A stretch of 44,026 bases of DNA from Candidatus Magasanikbacteria bacterium RIFOXYC2_FULL_40_16 (GCA_001783185.1 MFQY01000053.1:1-44026), one strand, 5' to 3'. Numbered from the stretch's first letter, positions 2,349 to 41,481 are shown. A program made the numbers and translations. Notes: a model not told the origin generated them from the letters alone.

Positions 2349-3137
2349 CTAATTATTCAAAAAATTTGTCAGATATGCCTGTAAAGATACAGCCTCATTA
2401 TTTCCCCGCTCAAGCCAAGAAACACTCGCGACAATTCTTTTTGTTTTCGGGTCATCAGTCCCCGCCTCGGCAATATCATCATTAACATCCCGATTAACAC
2501 TATATATCGTTATCGTTCTGGTAAAAACGCCGTTAATGGCCGGTTGCGCGACCGCTGTCAAAGTCCATCGTCCATCAACAATCACCGGATAATACGCCAC
2601 ACCGCTTGTTAAAATCGCAATGTCATCCGTCCAATTATTATTTTTTATCGTCCTGACTATTTCTACCCCCTCTTGAGCAAACTGGATCGCTTCGGTTTTT
2701 CTCAAACCCTCATGCATAATTTTATTTGAGAAAGAAATTATTCCATAAATTGAACTGAAAAAAAATAAAGCAATCGCAATCGCAATTATAATTTCCACCA
2801 TGCTAAACCCAGCACCACTTCTTTTTACAAAAGAAGTGGTGCTGGGTAAACCCTCCTCATTTTTTTTTACAAAAGAAGTGGTGCTGGGTAAACCCGCTCT
2901 CTTTTTAAGTTCCCTTAACGCATTACCATTGTGTTTTAATCTTTTTTCTCTCATACGAGCTAATTCTTCTTTATTATACGCTTCATAATATATAAGCTTC
3001 CATGGTTTATGTTGTCTTGTATAAAACTCTCCTTTTTTATTATGATAATCTAATCTCTCTTTCAAATTTTTTGTAGACCCTACATAGATTTTTCCATTTT
3101 TTTCACTCTCTAACAAATAAACATAATACATACTCAT
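2349..3137 (-). CDS. GIY-YIG nuclease domain (N-terminal ~85 aa) in one continuous frame with a type IV pseudopilin (..KRSGAG|FSMVEI..)
   Basis: The N-terminus YYVYLLESEKNGKIYVGSTKNLKERLDYHN...E..R.. matches GIY-YIG (YhbQ/UPF0213-like). It is followed by duplicated GLPSTTSFVK units, then a prepilin motif and a hydrophobic helix. No in-frame ATG lies between the two parts. The ATG at 2860, homologous to the neighbouring pilin's start, is out of frame by 1 nt. Confidence 0.6.
   Translation of the reverse strand: MSMYYVYLLESEKNGKIYVGSTKNLKERLDYHNKKGEFYTRQHKPWKLIYYEAYNKEELARMREKRLKHNGNALRELKKRAGLPSTTSFVKKNEEGLPSTTSFVKRSGAGFSMVEIIIAIAIALFFFSSIYGIISFSNKIMHEGLRKTEAIQFAQEGVEIVRTIKNNNWTDDIAILTSGVAYYPVIVDGRWTLTAVAQPAINGVFTRTITIYSVNRDVNDDIAEAGTDDPKTKRIVASVSWLERGNNEAVSLQAYLTNFLNN
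2808..2846. repeat. palindrome CCCAGCACCACTTCTTTT-TAC-AAAAGAAGTGGTGCTGGG in pseudopilin leader codons
   Basis: Read directly: 18-nt arms. An extra tandem half-copy (ACAAAAGAAGTGGTGCTGGGTAAACCC) lies at 2869-2895. Confidence 0.9.
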
Positions 3138-15681: not shown

Positions 15682-15764
15682 TCACCCTCCCGACTTAGTC
15701 GGGATGCTCCCAAATGCTGAGCCGAAAGCGAAGTCCCGATCTCACATCGGGAAGCTAGTGGCCC
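15682..15764 (-). pseudogene. degenerate tRNA-Ala-like remnant interrupted by TCCCGA..TCGGGA hairpins
   Basis: Minus strand: GGGCCACTAGCT-[TCCCGATGTGAGATCGGGA..]-CTCAGCATTTGGGAGCA-[TCCCGACTAAGTCGGGA]-GGGTG.. The acceptor and D-arm are recognisable, the anticodon arm is replaced by a hairpin and the T-arm has decayed. Confidence 0.6.
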
Positions 15765-38006: not shown

Positions 38007-38273
38007 ATTTTAGTAAAACAATCTTACAGCAAAAAAAGTAAAAGTTCAAGTCCTTTTCTCATCAAAAAATACCCTTGCGGGTTTGTTTTTATCCTGTACC
38101 ATTTTGAAGCAGGACTAATCCAAGAACTTTAGCGCCACAATTTGCTATTCCTAAATTTTAGGCAAGTAACCACAATCACAATCCACGACTGCAACATTAT
38201 GGGTTTCCTTTTATACCCTTATTGTAGAATAATAATTAATAACCCCAATTTTACACCTCTCCTAAATTAATAA

Positions 38274-38298
38274 GGCACCTTGATCTGTCAAGGTGCCC
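38274..38298 (-). terminator. intrinsic terminator after the 232-aa orphan gene
   Basis: GGCACCTTGA-TCTG-TCAAGGTGCC; on the minus strand it is followed by TTATTAATTT. Confidence 0.6.
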
Positions 38299-38311
38299 AA
38301 AATAGATACTA

Positions 38312-39010
38312 TTATGCCTTTTCCCCCCAAAGAACGGCATCAATCCTTTTCAAGGATACATCCGAACCATTACCTGTAAACAGGGCTACAATTTCTATCC
38401 ACAATGCTTCAGCATTGGCTTGACCAACCTCCAAGCGCTCAACAATTTCTTTAATGAAATAGTCCTTGGGTATGTATTGACCCTTCATTTGAAGACCATC
38501 CGCGGTAAGACAAGCCACATCTTCTTCATCAGAAAAGATACAACCAAATGTCAAAACCAATTTGGTTATGGCAAGATATGTACGAAGTAACGCCGGAGCA
38601 ATTTCTCCAAGCAACGGACTTGGGGCTATCCTTTCATACGAATTCAAACTACCAATTGATAGGCCATGTTGTACCGCGGGGGCAAGCCCGGCCAACACAC
38701 TTTGCGCGGCGGTCAGAACTTGTCTTTGTTGATTCGCGACTAATACTTGCGACAAACGAAGATCTTCTATGCCCTCTTGGTCCAGTTCGCAAGCAGGGTC
38801 AATTGCATCCTCAATAATTGCCTGAACTTCAATGAAGTTTTTTCTATTTTCTTCCTGCACAAGTGCTTCATCAATTATTTTTTTACAGGCTTCGCAAGTC
38901 GCTACATGAATAGAGAACGACTGTATCTGCAATGTTACTTCATCCTGGATACCTTTATCATCCGGGTTTAAAAAAAGTTCCCTCAATAGATCACAAAATG
39001 TTTTTGCCAT
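38312..39010 (-). CDS. hypothetical protein (232 aa), GC-richer
   Basis: ORF only, starting 39 nt downstream of tRNA-Pro. No family recognised. Confidence 0.5.
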   Translation of the reverse strand: MAKTFCDLLRELFLNPDDKGIQDEVTLQIQSFSIHVATCEACKKIIDEALVQEENRKNFIEVQAIIEDAIDPACELDQEGIEDLRLSQVLVANQQRQVLTAAQSVLAGLAPAVQHGLSIGSLNSYERIAPSPLLGEIAPALLRTYLAITKLVLTFGCIFSDEEDVACLTADGLQMKGQYIPKDYFIKEIVERLEVGQANAEALWIEIVALFTGNGSDVSLKRIDAVLWGEKA

Positions 39011-39048
39011 CGTCTTTTTCCTTTTCTAAGTGGATTTATAACCACACG

Positions 39049-39122
39049 TCGGAGTGAAAGGACTTGAACCTTCGACCCTCTGGTCCCAAACCAGATGCTC
39101 TAGCCAACTGAGCTACACTCCG
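39049..39122 (-). tRNA. tRNA-Pro(UGG)
   Basis: CGGAGTG TA GCTC AGTTGGCTA GAGC A TCTGG TTTGGGA CCAGA GGGTC GAAGG TTCAAGT CCTTT CACTCCG A. Confidence 0.9.
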
Positions 39123-39198
39123 ATATTTTATTGAATTTTATAATACAAATTTTTTAGTTGCGCTTACTTTGATTGTATATTAAAGCGAAGTTGTCCCA

Positions 39199-39247
39199 AC
39201 TGTAAGGGAACACTTACCCCGACCTTGCGTCGGGGAGCTACACTCCG
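39199..39247 (-). repeat. orphan tRNA-Pro 5' fragment (nt 1-12, CGGAGTGTAGCT) fused to the hairpin module CCCCGACGCAAGGTCGGGG-TAAGTGTTCCCTTAC-AGTT
   Basis: The 12 nt at 39236-39247 are identical to the 5' end of the intact tRNA-Pro about 115 nt downstream. Confidence 0.8.
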
Positions 39248-39261
39248 ATATAAAATTTTTG

Positions 39262-39942
39262 TTAAATCTGTTTTTTCAATCCGTCAATCCATCCAATTAA
39301 TTTATAAAAAAGTTTGGTGTTATATACTCTTAAATGGATAGTCCCGTATTTTAATATATTTTTACTTTTCCCCTTGCTCGCTGAACTTAAAGATCTCGAC
39401 ACTTTCATAAATTGATCTTTTTTTATTCCTGTCACTCTTGACCAATACTCTACAGCTTTATTACCAGATAAATTTCTATGTAAAATAACTTGTACTCTCA
39501 TTTTATCTTCTTCAACCTTACAAATCTCTCTAAAAAAACGCATCATCATCATAACCATAGTTGAATCAGAATTTGTAAAATCTACACACTTCCAAATACT
39601 TCCTTCCGCGCCTTTTTTATATCCCTCTCCCCAATATAATGAAATCCCCACAAGAAAAAGGTCATTTTCTCTTATTTTTTTTACCTCTTTAGCGGCCTTT
39701 TCACGTATTTCTTTTGCCCTCTCCTTGGCAAAAACTGTTTGTTCTTTGTTTCTACGAATTAATGCTTTCACACTTTTCTCATATACCCTATTTTCTATTC
39801 TAGTTTTCGCTTTTTTTGACAAAACTATATCTCTCAACCAATAAGAAAGTGTGCTTTTGGGGATTTTTAACGATTTACTTATTTCATTATAACTTTTCCC
39901 CAACTTGCGAAGTTTTATCGCATTTATTTTTTCTACCTTCAT
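39262..39942 (-). CDS. HTH plus single-motif LAGLIDADG-like homing-endonuclease-like protein (free-standing)
   Basis: N-terminal HTH (KSYNEISKSLKIPKSTLSYWL). DLFLVGISLYWGEGYK resembles the LAGLIDADG (L..G....GEG) motif. The size and the basic C-terminus fit the family. This is a motif-level call only. Confidence 0.45.
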   Translation of the reverse strand: MKVEKINAIKLRKLGKSYNEISKSLKIPKSTLSYWLRDIVLSKKAKTRIENRVYEKSVKALIRRNKEQTVFAKERAKEIREKAAKEVKKIRENDLFLVGISLYWGEGYKKGAEGSIWKCVDFTNSDSTMVMMMMRFFREICKVEEDKMRVQVILHRNLSGNKAVEYWSRVTGIKKDQFMKVSRSLSSASKGKSKNILKYGTIHLRVYNTKLFYKLIGWIDGLKKQI

Positions 39943-40004
39943 ATAAATTGAACTTACGGTAATTAGACATACAAATTATACCGTAAGTTCAAAATATATA
40001 CAAG

Positions 40005-40306
40005 TGCCGAGGGCGAGGATTGAACTCGCGACACGTGGATTTTCCAATTTATTATCTTGTGTTTCCACAAGGATCGGACTATATCATCACCCCGACTCAG
40101 TCGGGGGTTGGGCGCTAATGCGAGATTATTGTTGGGGCTCACTCGCTAGTCTCTACACCTTCCCCGATACTTTTACCCATCGGGGCTTGGCTCGGGATTA
40201 TCCGCTAGTCGACGGACTTCCCCGAATTCACCCAATTTTCTCATCTTAATTTACATTAAGAGGGACCGAAATTCAGTCCACTGCTCTACCACTGAGCTAC
40301 CTCGGC
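40005..40306 (-). tRNA. tRNA-Phe(GAA) interrupted by a group I intron (exons 40275-40306 and 40005-40044)
   Basis: Exon 1: GCCGAGG TA GCTC AGTGGTA GAGC A GTGGA CT. Exon 2: GAAAA TCCAC GTGTC GCGAG TTCAATC CTCGC CCTCGGC A. Joined, they give a canonical 72-nt tRNA-Phe. Confidence 0.85.
40045..40274 (-). ncRNA. group I intron (IC3-like), 230 nt, inserted between U33 and G34
   Basis: The 5' exon ends in U, which pairs as U-G in a P1 helix (GGACU with GGUCC at intron nt 8-12). The intron ends in G. The core strings AAUCCCGAGCCAAGCC.. and ..GGAAGGUGUAGAGACUAGCGAGUGAGCCCC.. and ..AUAGUCC.. resemble the cyanobacterial tRNA-Leu intron core (recalled from memory). Confidence 0.8.
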
Positions 40307-40340
40307 TTTTTCGTGATAGACAGACTCACAATAAAGTGAG

Positions 40341-40416
40341 TGGTGGACCCTACCGGATTTGAACCGGTCACCTCTTCCATGCCATGGAAGCATTCTACCA
40401 AATGAACTAAGGGCCC
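40341..40416 (-). tRNA. tRNA-Ala(GGC), CCA encoded
   Basis: GGGCCCT TA GTTC ATTTGGTA GAAT G CTTCC ATGGCAT GGAAG AGGTG ACCGG TTCAAAT CCGGT AGGGTCC A CCA, with G3:U70. Confidence 0.9.
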
Positions 40417-40419
40417 GTC

Positions 40420-40683
40420 TTATTTTAATTTAATAATTTTATTTTCAATAATATCTTCTATAATATCTCGTCTTTTTAATTTTTTAATCTTATATTCAAT
40501 GCATCTAGCCTGTTTTATATCATTATAAATTTGAAAAAATTTTAATTCCCATTTACCCTTATTTTTTGTCGCGATATTTTTACCGGAATTATGTTCAGCC
40601 ATTCTTCGATCTAAATCAATCGTTGACCCTATATAATACTTGCCCGCTAATTCGCTATATATAATATACAGATAACCTACCAT
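40420..40683 (-). CDS. small GIY-YIG nuclease-family protein (87 aa)
   Basis: MVGYLYIIYSELAGKYYIGSTIDLDRRMAEHNSG...; paralogue of the N-terminal domain of 2349-3137. Its stop codon lies 3 nt from the tRNA-Ala 5' end. The start is taken at 40683; the longer ORF reads into the pseudo-tRNA. Confidence 0.75.
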   Translation of the reverse strand: MVGYLYIIYSELAGKYYIGSTIDLDRRMAEHNSGKNIATKNKGKWELKFFQIYNDIKQARCIEYKIKKLKRRDIIEDIIENKIIKLK

Positions 40684-40694
40684 AATATTATTTA

Positions 40695-40784
40695 CCAGCC
40701 ACCTTCCCGATGTGGCATCGGGACGTTCTACCAAATGCTTTTAGTCCCGATGAGCCAAAGGCGACATCGGGAAACTAAGGGCCC
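40695..40784 (-). pseudogene. decayed tRNA-Ala(GGC)-like copy carrying two TCCCGATG..CATCGGGA hairpins, truncated in the T-loop by the GIY-YIG gene
   Basis: Minus strand: GGGCCCTTAGTT-[TCCCGATGTCGCCTTTGGCTCATCGGGACTAAAAG]-CATTTGGTAGAAC-G-[TCCCGATGCCACATCGGGA]-AGGTGGCTGGTAAAT.. The intact gene reads GGGCCCTTAGTTCATTTGGTAGAATG[anticodon arm]AGGTGACCGGTTCAAAT. Confidence 0.7.
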
Positions 40785-41003
40785 GTTGATATGCCTCAAC
40801 ATAATACTAAAAATTTCACAAAAAGTCAAGGCGCGACATCATATTGATAACAATTATATCACACGCGGTTTTAAACAAACAAATCAAAACCACCCGCTCA
40901 AGAATCTGTGTGGGCGGTTTGTGTCTTGCCAGCTACACCGGCATCATCACCCGTCGCAATTTTTTTGAGCATATAATTTTTAAAGACTGAGTTAATATCT
41001 TTT

Positions 41004-41023
41004 CAGAAAGGTGACGGGGTTGA
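41004..41023. repeat. solo right-end repeat of the MITE-like family (CAGAAAGGTGACGGGGTTGA)
   Basis: Matches the right terminal repeats at 5904-5923 and 30692-30711. No left end was recognised. Confidence 0.6.
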
Positions 41024-41070
41024 CAAAAATGACTTTTTGGTATAACATTTTTAAACAAAAGGAGGAAAAA

Positions 41071-41481
41071 ATGACTTTCGAAGAATTGGTCCAAAAAGTG
41101 GGAATTGGGTTGGCAACCGTAATCCAAAGCGAGAGAAGCGGGCTGACCGAAGAAGTCCTCGCCCGTCTTGATAACTTCCAAAAGTGGGAAGAGGTGTTTC
41201 TTGAATCTCTACCACATAGCCAGCTGGAAATAACAGCTCATAAAAAAATGGGAGAATTCATAAGTTCAGACGAAGACCTCAGAAAATATCAGGCATACCA
41301 CCCATGGATCACCATCTATGGCCATCCAAGCCACAAAGAGCTACGCTCCCCACCCGAGGAAACGCCCCTGTTCACACTTGAACAATGGAGCTGGATCTGG
41401 CGCATGAACCGATACGCTCATTCAAATCCGGAATTGCGTTATTTGGCAATGAGGCAGATGATTGCCTTGAGCGAAACGTAG
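41071..41481 (+). CDS. hypothetical protein (136 aa), GC-richer
   Basis: The Shine-Dalgarno AAAGGAGGAAAAA-ATG at 41071 favours this start over 41011. No family recognised. Confidence 0.5.
   Translation: MTFEELVQKVGIGLATVIQSERSGLTEEVLARLDNFQKWEEVFLESLPHSQLEITAHKKMGEFISSDEDLRKYQAYHPWITIYGHPSHKELRSPPEETPLFTLEQWSWIWRMNRYAHSNPELRYLAMRQMIALSET

Follow-up and report, generated by a model that had tools for sequence, protein, structure and literature searches.

What accounts for a cluster of tRNA genes in which one tRNA is split by an intron and flanked by candidate homing endonuclease genes of two different families? The cluster lies in Candidatus Magasanikbacteria bacterium RIFOXYC2_FULL_40_16 (genome G000 in our set; 0.97 Mb in 65 contigs, 86% complete), on contig C53 (GCA_001783185.1 MFQY01000053.1:1-44026), and "the window" denotes this whole analyzed stretch of 44,026 nucleotides (nt). 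Relatives of the window's proteins carry titles from across the Patescibacteria (Moraniibacteriota, Magasanikiibacteriota, Parcubacteria, and others). On the minus strand, the order is a pseudo-tRNA-Ala, a GIY-YIG gene, tRNA-Ala(GGC), an intron-split tRNA-Phe(GAA), an open reading frame (ORF) of 226 amino acids (aa), a tRNA-Pro fragment, and tRNA-Pro (Table 1). All seven elements had been listed in an initial annotation made from the sequence, and we recovered each of them on that strand, at or within a few bases of where it had been placed.

On balance, we lean toward an account in which free-standing homing endonucleases are aimed at tRNA genes and an intron shields tRNA-Phe, as in collaborative homing, within an invaded Ala-Phe-Pro array. 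The initial annotation had compared the locus with the free-standing endonucleases of phages (seg and mob genes), an analogy that appears apt and can be sharpened to collaborative homing. Collaborative homing and free-standing endonucleases are described for phages (PMC3984707), with F-CphI and the ORF-less psbA intron of cyanophage S-PM2, and T4 mobE and the I-TevIII intron, as examples (PMC3984707, PMC2790892, PMC6083498). The likeness is that intron and free-standing gene are here present or absent together in close genomes. Unlike the phage systems, the present one sits on a Patescibacteria chromosome, has a tRNA as host gene, recurs as a pairing across many classes of the phylum, and involves a putative enzyme with a helix-turn-helix (HTH) and a LAGLIDADG-derived domain instead of an Endo VII-like or HNH enzyme; its target is presumed to be the intron site.

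Intron and Free-Standing Gene in an Ala-Phe-Pro Array

Homologous arrays in relatives were located by a short tRNA-Phe pattern, which had no match in genomes G223 and G018. Anchoring synteny on the neighboring trigger-factor gene was rejected, as relatives lack a tRNA array next to trigger factor. Two genomes of the same family (G281 and G308) carry the bare array Ala(TGC)-Phe(GAA, intronless)-Pro(TGG), with Phe-Pro gaps of 16 and 4 nt and without intron, ORF, or GIY-YIG gene, and the tRNA-Phe and tRNA-Pro genes of G308 are nearly identical to the window's tRNA-Phe exons and to the 5' part of its tRNA-Pro. In a genome of the same order (G334), tRNA-Ala(TGC) is joined by a tRNA-Phe whose intron measures 225 nt (93.7 bits), by an ORF homolog of 225 aa, and by a tRNA-Pro that overlaps the end of this ORF. 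Since the array is bare in G281 and G308 and filled in G334, the intron and a block of about 740 nt made up of spacer and ORF are additions to a compact ancestral array, and on this comparison both intron and ORF are insertions. The array is thus polymorphic among relatives, the outcome on which the initial annotation had made its reading depend, and in the four close genomes compared intron and ORF come and go together. The ancestral Ala-Phe-Pro array would have taken several independent selfish insertions.

The intron is a full-length match to the Rfam group I family RF00028 (40055-40283; 93 bits against a gathering score of 50, E 8.8e-23), and ARAGORN in intron mode calls tRNA-Phe(GAA) at 40004-40306 with an intron of 230 nt. 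In the cmscan alignment, P1 is formed by GGACU paired with GGUCC and ends in a terminal U.G pair, from which we set the intron at 40045-40274, with U33 as the last nucleotide of the 5' exon; GAA occurs at both junctions and leaves up to 3 nt of uncertainty in the boundaries. The intron therefore interrupts the anticodon loop between U33 and G34, and its sequence has both the U.G pair closing P1 and a terminal G. The group I match exceeds the gathering score, and the exons make up a canonical tRNA-Phe(GAA) that is collinear with the intronless genes of G281 and G308. The intron is presumably self-splicing. As the initial annotation had stated, the intron has no ORF; at 230 nt it is too short for an endonuclease gene. 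One metagenome contig joins 40041 to 40272, omitting exactly 230 nt, and probably comes from another organism; the contigs of four DNA runs (85% likeness) held mostly tRNAs of other organisms and gave no within-species evidence of presence or absence.

Like other bacterial tRNA group I introns, such as those of cyanobacterial tRNA-Leu(UAA), of tRNA-fMet, and of Patescibacteria, this intron is small and located in the anticodon loop, and it differs from them in its host, tRNA-Phe(GAA), its site at U33/G34, and the endonuclease-like gene alongside. Group I introns in tRNAs of the Candidate Phyla Radiation are already mentioned in the literature (PMC8172020). ARAGORN intron-mode calls of about 190-250 nt also occur in Patescibacteria tRNA-Tyr(GTA), tRNA-Thr(GGT), tRNA-Arg(GCG), tRNA-Thr(TGT), and tRNA-Asn(GTT) (loci L142, L150, L151, L152, L163, L171, and L177); those in L142, L163, L171, and L177 coincide with RF00028, and the rest are calls of ARAGORN alone, some of which may be false.

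The free-standing ORF belongs to a family of at least 293 homologs, with 435 loci in species-representative genomes, and its association with tRNA-Phe extends well beyond the close relatives. Among the 80 best-matching of these loci, each from a distinct species, the ORF adjoins tRNA-Phe(GAA) in 75. In 70 of them the tRNA-Phe bears an intron: 59 of these tRNAs lie upstream of the ORF in the same orientation, typically at a distance of 40-155 nt, 7 lie downstream, and 4 lie upstream in the opposite orientation. Five loci have an intronless tRNA-Phe; of the remaining five of the 80, three lie at contig ends with less than 370 nt of upstream sequence and two have no tRNA call. The tRNA that follows the Phe-linked ORF varies (Pro, Gly, or Met) and the Phe is constant. 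In most related loci this downstream tRNA starts between -23 and +21 nt from the ORF stop. The reading frame often runs into the next tRNA and stops there, with an overlap of 9-23 nt (for example in G334, locus L189), and in L120 it reads right through the tRNA.

Homodimeric LAGLIDADG enzymes recognize pseudo-palindromes and cut at their center. The DNA of the anticodon arm reads as a natural pseudo-palindrome, with the intron site next to its center, and we therefore propose intronless tRNA-Phe DNA as the target. In such a mechanism, the ORF-less group I intron would occupy tRNA-Phe between U33 and G34, and the gene about 60 nt downstream of tRNA-Phe would encode an HTH joined to a single-motif LAGLIDADG-derived domain that acts as a homodimer and cleaves the anticodon-arm DNA of intronless tRNA-Phe genes. 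An intron already in place would divide the target site and so protect the host copy, and double-strand-break repair would copy intron and gene together into naive alleles.

A hint of immunity comes from the anticodon stems of the 80 loci. All five intronless tRNA-Phe genes adjacent to an ORF have a strand-swapped stem (CTTCT, CTTCC, or TTTCC), and 42 of 73 intron-bearing tRNA-Phe genes have AAGGA or GAGGA on the 5' stem strand. The tRNA-Phe genes of G281 and G308 (loci L190/L191) differ from the window's exons (40030-40044) by one base in the 3' stem strand, TCCTC versus TCCAC. This difference gives a T-T mismatch in the stem near the intron site and could be a resistance or co-conversion polymorphism, or nothing.

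The 226-aa protein comprises an N-terminal HTH (residues 1-40), a long helix of 48 residues (43-90), and a C-terminal domain (94-226) with a single motif, LYWGEGYK (E106, K109). Searches of Pfam, NCBIfam, and PHROGs return HTH-type matches only (CENP-B_N at 21.4 bits against a cut-off of 21.2; HTH_SB and HTH_23 below their Pfam cut-offs), HTH matches recur in 38/38 close homologs, and no Pfam LAGLIDADG family matches the protein even at E ≤ 10. The link to LAGLIDADG is a remote one, drawn from sequence profiles. Residues 102-107 (LYWGEG) have the form of a LAGLIDADG-type helix ending in a conserved acid followed by Gly, and E106, G107, and K109 do not vary among 38 close homologs; each has a conservation of at least 90% among 37 diverse family members. 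LAGLIDADG_3 is reached at E ≤ 1 by just 3 of 37 diverse members. When a profile of the 37 was compared with all Protein Data Bank (PDB) sequences, I-DmoI was the sole match (E 1.1e-3 to 1.5e-3), the family's LYWgEGsK..rlaNSDp..wL aligning with LYVAEGDKT.LRIWNKNK..WL of I-DmoI 104-145. This region is presumably the second LAGLIDADG motif of I-DmoI, in which a Lys lies close to a catalytic Glu. In the same comparison, profile A1, built from close homologs, gave only weak HTH matches, and just the diverse profiles (A3 and A4) reached I-DmoI.

Two paralogs in the same genome, on contigs C55 and C26, bring the genome's matches to three. The C55 paralog (31% identical to the 226-aa protein, E 6e-20) has LFLAGLYLGDGAK at the place where the 226-aa protein has LFLVGISLYWGEGYK, and carries a canonical LFLAGLYLGDG motif. 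It matches LAGLIDADG_3 at 21.5 bits, or 22.7 with its in-frame neighbors, against a cut-off of 22.5 (E 2.8e-4). The Pfam search for LAGLIDADG families that had been suggested for 39262-39942 is thus negative for the protein itself and positive, at about the cut-off, for its paralog.

Models made with AlphaFold2 (AF2) have predicted local distance difference test (pLDDT) values of 87.5 (full protein) and 87.9 (C-terminal domain), and an Atlas model has a template modeling (TM) score of 0.92 to a cluster auto-named 'Homing endonuclease LAGLIDADG domain-containing protein', a name that serves as a lead only. Modeled in two copies, the C-terminal domain scored 0.57 and the best of three controls 0.00; the former value is reached by 20 of 30 proteins solved as one-chain pairs and by 1 of 23 solved as single chains. 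The runs have at least 96% of contacts in common, with a partner pLDDT of at least 81, and the interface is symmetric and formed by the motif helix (domain residues 1-17), the 17:17 contact being E106:E106. In the model, the domain resembles I-CreI-type single-motif homodimers, which likewise form a symmetric dimer through their motif helices with the acids adjacent, and it shares the motif alignment with I-DmoI; it differs from both in the absence of a Pfam or Foldseek match, in an extra helix, and in the N-terminal HTH carried on the 48-residue helix. Taken together, the profiles and models lead us to read the C-terminal domain as a LAGLIDADG-derived, homodimeric nuclease domain, probably active and divergent at its periphery. 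The I-DmoI match, the near-cut-off paralog, and the dimer model also make the protein more than the plain HTH regulator that the initial annotation had named as the refuting case. That annotation's claim of two nuclease families flanking an intron-bearing tRNA holds in Pfam for the GIY-YIG gene (PF01541), and for LAGLIDADG it holds by remote profiles and not by Pfam.

The GIY-YIG Cassette and Its Pseudo-tRNA

The ORF at 40420-40734 matches the Pfam GIY-YIG family PF01541 (E 1e-16; 61.4 bits against a cut-off of 22.6) over residues 20-89 of the long frame, confirming the identity suggested for 40420-40683, with the ATG at 40683 as the likely start. The gene's stop codon lies 3 nt before tRNA-Ala(GGC). 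Its product also matches PHROG 'homing endonuclease' families (E 2.8e-5) and, over 36 residues, TIGR01453 'group I intron endonuclease' at 24.3 bits against a cut-off of 56.05. The pseudo-tRNA-Ala ahead of it is a 5' copy of the tRNA up to the T-arm, in which an 8-bp hairpin replaces the anticodon arm. Its exact matches to tRNA-Ala nt 1-12 and 13-24 are split by a 35-nt hairpin in the D-loop, its repeats consist of an exact 14 nt (40405-40418 / 40773-40786) plus 25 nt at 76% identity, and it ends in the T-loop, where the start region of the GIY-YIG gene begins.

This arrangement of pseudo-tRNA, GIY-YIG gene, and tRNA recurs. The genome has eight GIY-YIG matches, five of which adjoin a tRNA, and the same order is found at tRNA-Glu (22-nt duplicate), tRNA-Leu(CAA) (24 and 13 nt), and tRNA-Asp (degenerate). 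Of 61 genomes of the class, 44 contain GIY-YIG genes, a single genome having as many as 10 matches; several of the genes are interrupted by stops or duplicated in tandem. A same-strand tRNA lies directly downstream of the small GIY-YIG gene in 19 of 29 loci from other genomes, and in 12 of these 19 an exact 11-36-nt 5' fragment of that tRNA stands 289-440 nt upstream of it, just before the GIY-YIG gene. We read the pattern as that of a cassette that inserts itself into a tRNA gene, downstream of the promoter, and supplies a substitute for the 5' segment. In the window, the mini GIY-YIG cassette would have entered tRNA-Ala near the T-loop, behind the tRNA promoter, and its fresh 5' tRNA segment would leave a decaying pseudo-tRNA upstream and an intact tRNA downstream. 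The promoter-like site just upstream of the pseudo-tRNA-Ala (Table 1), a match to consensus, probably was the tRNA's own promoter at first and now drives the array as a whole.

Could the gene instead encode an ordinary small stand-alone cellular nuclease that uses tRNA promoters, with the pseudo-tRNA a processed leader and not a scar? A catalytic domain of only 87 aa, the wide occurrence within the class, and a promoter-like site directly upstream of the pseudo-tRNA would all suit such a gene. We nevertheless think it unlikely, because the gene reaches up to 10 copies per genome of about 1 Mb, several of them tandem or with internal stops, because the copies have different tRNAs as partners, each with a 5' duplicate of its own partner ahead of it, and because 17 of the 61 genomes have no match.

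The reading as a tRNA-invading cassette has a partial precedent in T4 SegB, likewise a free-standing GIY-YIG gene among tRNA genes; SegB is described as a GIY-YIG homing endonuclease in the T4 tRNA gene cluster (PMC2330249). The differences from SegB are that the present gene lies inside a duplicated tRNA (pseudo-tRNA, gene, intact tRNA), that it is found in many copies per cellular genome, and that its 87-aa product is a catalytic domain without a DNA-binding region and so lacks the two-part architecture of I-TevI/Seg-type enzymes.

Further GIY-YIG loci vary in layout. On C55 (locus L085, 700-2262), two tandem truncated pseudo-tRNA-Ile copies, each with a GC hairpin in place of the anticodon arm and each ending in the T-loop, precede an intact tRNA-Ile(GAT); an 89-aa GIY-YIG gene begins at the next base and is followed by a 231-aa HTH protein (LAGLYLGDG) and tRNA-Val(GAC). 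At L090 (G411:C1:203482-206718), an intact tRNA-Ala(GGC) is preceded by a GIY-YIG gene and a 26-nt 5' duplicate, and its 3' 30 nt are repeated at least four more times downstream at 94-nt spacing. In the window, a further GIY-YIG match (2919-3131, minus strand; 64.3 bits) lies in a 263-aa frame with no ARAGORN-called tRNA near it.

Alternative Roles and Wider Setting of the HTH Gene

The occurrence of the 226-aa family is sporadic, as is general for homing endonuclease genes, with filled and empty sites among close relatives. At E ≤ 1e-10 it is matched in 90 of 401 genomes of an even phylum sample (82 of 338 high-quality genomes) and is absent from 3/3 other genomes of its own family; genomes have up to seven matches, and some copies contain internal stops (G059, G309, G032, and G397). 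Patchiness, multiple copies, and interrupted copies all point to a selfish element. Intron and ORF also occur apart. A group I intron match is present in 12 of 15 ORF-positive and 16 of 65 ORF-negative genomes among 80 sampled, ORF and intron being adjacent in 7, and intron-bearing tRNA-Phe genes without the ORF are found in G008, G022, and G049. A tblastn search for ORF remnants at 20 intron loci of ORF-negative genomes gave 0 matches. Such separate occurrence fits the gain-decay-loss cycle of homing endonuclease genes.

These distributions bear on whether the protein is kept beside the tRNA-Phe intron for splicing and not for mobility. Some organellar LAGLIDADG proteins act as maturases, and a splicing cofactor would account for the 70 intron-bearing neighbors in 80 loci, for the joint presence or absence in the four close genomes, and for the excess of introns in ORF-positive genomes. 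The ORF-free introns of G008, G022, and G049 show, however, that the ORF is not needed for splicing and so disfavor an obligatory maturase. A maturase would also leave unexplained the ORFs beside intronless tRNA-Phe (five of the 80 loci and L122), the intronless tRNAs beside most paralogs, and the DNA-type HTH. Moreover, the protein keeps the acid and the lysine of the alignment with I-DmoI, residues that a pure maturase would not be expected to need. We regard this role as improbable.

A second possibility arises from the sequence just ahead of the gene. A palindrome (39941-39999) lies between tRNA-Phe and the ORF, its 3' arm ending at the start codon, and is present in the window and in 52 of 56 related loci at z < -2 (median z -5.6). 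The arm sequence is conserved (AATTGAACCTATGGTA), with changes paired in both arms; an extended -10-like TGnTATAAT sits at the edge of the loop, and a T-run leads into the ATG. The palindrome could be an operator for a dimeric HTH protein, a terminator or attenuator of read-through from the tRNA promoter, or both. Covering the extended -10 and the start codon, it probably keeps expression of the 226-aa gene low, either by HTH autorepression or by hairpin termination or masking in read-through tRNA transcripts.

Such an element raises the prospect of a domesticated HTH transcription factor, descended from a LAGLIDADG ancestor in the manner of WhiA, that binds the palindrome and regulates the tRNA operon or itself. 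WhiA likewise combines a LAGLIDADG-derived domain with an HTH. Its HTH is C-terminal, its two degenerate LAGLIDADG domains lack the catalytic acids, and it is a conserved single-copy protein; by contrast, the 226-aa family keeps the acid, as well as the lysine, and its genes are patchy and multicopy. The HTH matches throughout the close homologs, the conserved palindrome with its extended -10, an identity of 40-60% across distant classes that implies purifying selection, and a predicted fold that departs from canonical LAGLIDADG would all be expected of a regulator. Presence in 90 of 401 genomes and in none of the three of its own family, a copy number of 0-7, internal stops, and clean empty sites are, on the other hand, ill-suited to a housekeeping regulator, and autoregulation is compatible with homing, I-TevI being both an endonuclease and an autorepressor. 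Domestication is accordingly an explanation to which we give little weight.

Distant paralogs of the 226-aa protein extend the tRNA linkage to other species of tRNA. A same-strand tRNA lies about -25 to +60 nt from the ORF end in 37 of 40 such loci (two of them by intron-mode calls only), including Gly, Gln, Met, Ile(TAT), Ala(GGC), Val(GAC), Ser, Arg, Tyr, and Thr, and some paralogs adjoin other intron-bearing tRNAs. The 220-aa paralog on C26 (locus L084, 4062-6137; 38% identical to the 226-aa protein) directly follows a tyrosine recombinase gene (Phage_integrase, E 1e-30), and 3 nt separate its end from tRNA-Arg(TCT); between this tRNA-Arg and tRNA-His, a partial tRNA scores weakly (27.9 bits).

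That the genes are cargo or agents of some other insertion mechanism at the tRNA 5' boundary, such as a recombinase- or transposase-like action of the HTH protein or mobilization in trans by another enzyme, with no break-repair homing and a secondary intron linkage, would agree with the abutting or overlapping tRNA 5' ends at paralog and most Phe-linked loci, with the resemblance of the HTH to transposase families (HTH_SB, HTH_23, HTH_Tnp_1), with 5' tRNA duplications reminiscent of att-type or target duplications, and with the recombinase gene beside the C26 paralog, but is the least probable of the alternatives, given that Pfam and NCBIfam detect no transposase or recombinase catalytic domain in the 226-aa protein, that a repeat scan saw no terminal inverted repeats around the cassette, that profiles connect the C-terminal domain with nothing but a LAGLIDADG endonuclease, and that the Phe-linked subfamily keeps its upstream Phe while the downstream tRNA varies.

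Collaborative homing at tRNA-Phe remains the account we lean toward, and several observations weigh against it. The I-DmoI match is borderline (E about 1e-3) and spans only some 43 residues, and Pfam LAGLIDADG matches number 0/38 among the 226-aa protein and 37 close homologs. With both models, Foldseek gave no match at E ≤ 0.001 in PDB and BFVD, and no LAGLIDADG chain is among the matches listed; the TM score is at most 0.44, the best PDB value belonging to OmpA-like or IspF folds. The strict tests of family membership, a curated Pfam model above cut-off and a fold search, thus both turned out negative. The AF2 topology is a-b-a-b-a-b-b-a in place of the canonical a-b-b-a-b-b-a, with an extra helix between strands 3 and 4, and the score of the dimer model may reflect likeness to already solved LAGLIDADG homodimers. 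The ORF at L122 stands beside an intronless tRNA-Phe with an unswapped stem (AACGG), and the contrast in stems may be lineage history and not selection, related genomes not being independent. Most paralogs adjoin intronless tRNAs, which leaves self-immunity there unexplained, and with the 87-aa GIY-YIG protein a catalytic domain only, site-specific homing by it alone is hard to picture. The ORF is 40-45% identical to copies in distant genomes and 38% identical to the same-order copy, the opposite order to trigger factor (32-34% and 45%), and these identity ranges (ORF 38-45%, trigger factor 32-45%) are a weak hint of horizontal movement. The 40-60% identity across classes and the operator-like palindrome fit a domesticated regulator as well. 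The analysis establishes the parts of the locus, the families to which they belong, their origin by insertion, and the linkage of both gene families to tRNA genes throughout the phylum. Nuclease activity, the target site, protection by the intron, and regulation by the palindrome are, like cleavage, splicing, and mobility at this locus, predictions from sequence and models.

Extending the proposal beyond this locus, we suggest, more tentatively and at rather less than even confidence, that free-standing homing endonucleases with tRNA genes for homing sites form a guild throughout the Patescibacteria, made up of HTH-LAGLIDADG-derived subfamilies, each tied to one tRNA species, and of a mini GIY-YIG family. 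For entering an essential RNA gene, the guild would have two solutions that have not been described side by side, the second being a cassette that brings a replacement 5' tRNA segment, leaves a pseudo-tRNA scar, and hijacks the tRNA promoter. Collaborative homing and GIY-YIG genes in tRNA clusters are already known from phages. As far as we searched, an HTH-LAGLIDADG-derived family with strict tRNA linkage, a cellular and phylum-wide pairing of intron and free-standing gene on tRNA-Phe, and the pseudo-tRNA, GIY-YIG, tRNA cassette all appear to be new. A literature search on GIY-YIG/tRNA association in Patescibacteria found no paper describing it, supplements lying outside the search, so that this is not proof of absence.

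Free-standing endonucleases cooperating with ORF-less introns have been proposed as a missing step in the origin of mobile introns, on the basis of a few phage cases, and the present locus may add a case from cells, one that recurs in hundreds of copies through a phylum. Its natural empty, intron-only, gene-only, and intron-plus-gene states make the collaborative homing model directly testable. The proposed invasions could also explain the pseudo-tRNA fragments that litter the tRNA arrays of ultra-small bacteria and the failure of tRNA finders to detect tRNA-Phe in them, and they point to a compact HTH-LAGLIDADG scaffold and to mini GIY-YIG nucleases, both predicted.

The tRNA-Pro Fragment, Hairpin Repeats, and Neighboring Genes

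The orphan tRNA-Pro fragment is one copy of an exact 17-nt direct repeat (39110-39126 / 39235-39251, 125 nt apart) composed of 4 nt of leader and 13 nt of tRNA. It begins 10 nt past the ORF stop, in the place where tRNA-Pro itself starts in relatives. Between the two copies lie 108 nt with a weak promoter-like site and a GC-rich hairpin from a repeat family found throughout the genome. The genome contains no second copy of the entire insert, only about 21 nt of it recurring, and we rejected the idea that it is itself a repeated element. A repeat-bearing insert with a 17-nt duplication would have split the 5' end of tRNA-Pro.

The hairpin family, CCCGA..TCGGG, has 176 copies genome-wide in a genome of 40.6% GC, in the forms CCCGAC-N3-5-GTCGGG, CCCGATGTGAAATCGGG, and a 26-nt form. 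Examples in the window lie at 15689, 37828, 39218, 40706, 40746, and 41511; both pseudo-tRNA-Ala hairpins belong to the family, and two hairpins inside the group I intron (40091 and 40163) match it as well. With 29 copies within 500 nt of a tRNA, a zone that covers 3.3% of the genome, the hairpins are about five-fold enriched there. The notion that they are specific to the cassettes was nonetheless dropped, since only those 29 of the 176 copies are near tRNAs. The hairpins colonized the pseudo-tRNAs and the 108-nt insert secondarily.

Table 1. Features of the tRNA array in order along the minus strand, with window coordinates.
Feature	Coordinates	Strand	Basis
Promoter-like site (TTGACT, 17 nt, TATTAT)	40801..40829	-	Consensus scan, 10/12 matches, best of the strand; consensus match only
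Pseudo-tRNA-Ala	40694..40784	-	Repeats relative to the tRNA-Ala 5' part
Mini GIY-YIG gene, 87 aa	40420..40683	-	PF01541 match
Intact tRNA-Ala(GGC)	40341..40416	-	ARAGORN; Rfam tRNA 58.7 bits
tRNA-Phe(GAA) 5' exon, ending at U33	40275..40306	-	ARAGORN intron mode; P1 pairing; collinear with relatives' intronless tRNA-Phe
ORF-less group I intron, 230 nt	40045..40274	-	RF00028 93 bits; ARAGORN i(34,230)
tRNA-Phe(GAA) 3' exon	40004..40044	-	ARAGORN intron mode; relatives' collinear genes
Palindrome/hairpin with 21-nt arms	39941..39999	-	Inverted repeat, 90% complementary
226-aa ORF, HTH plus probable LAGLIDADG-derived domain	39262..39942	-	HTH profile matches; remote family profile; models
Orphan tRNA-Pro 5' fragment, 17 nt	39235..39251	-	Exact direct repeat
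108-nt insertion between two 17-nt repeats	39127..39234	-	Repeat and hairpin scans
Intact tRNA-Pro(TGG)	39048..39122	-	ARAGORN; Rfam tRNA 68.9 bits

Between the array and the trigger-factor gene lies a 156-aa ORF (41011-41481, plus strand) without a Pfam or NCBIfam family. A 232-aa ORF (38312-39010, minus strand), likewise outside the families of these two databases, directly follows tRNA-Pro, and a terminator-like hairpin stands after it (38273-38298, minus strand), so that this ORF may be co-transcribed with the tRNA array.

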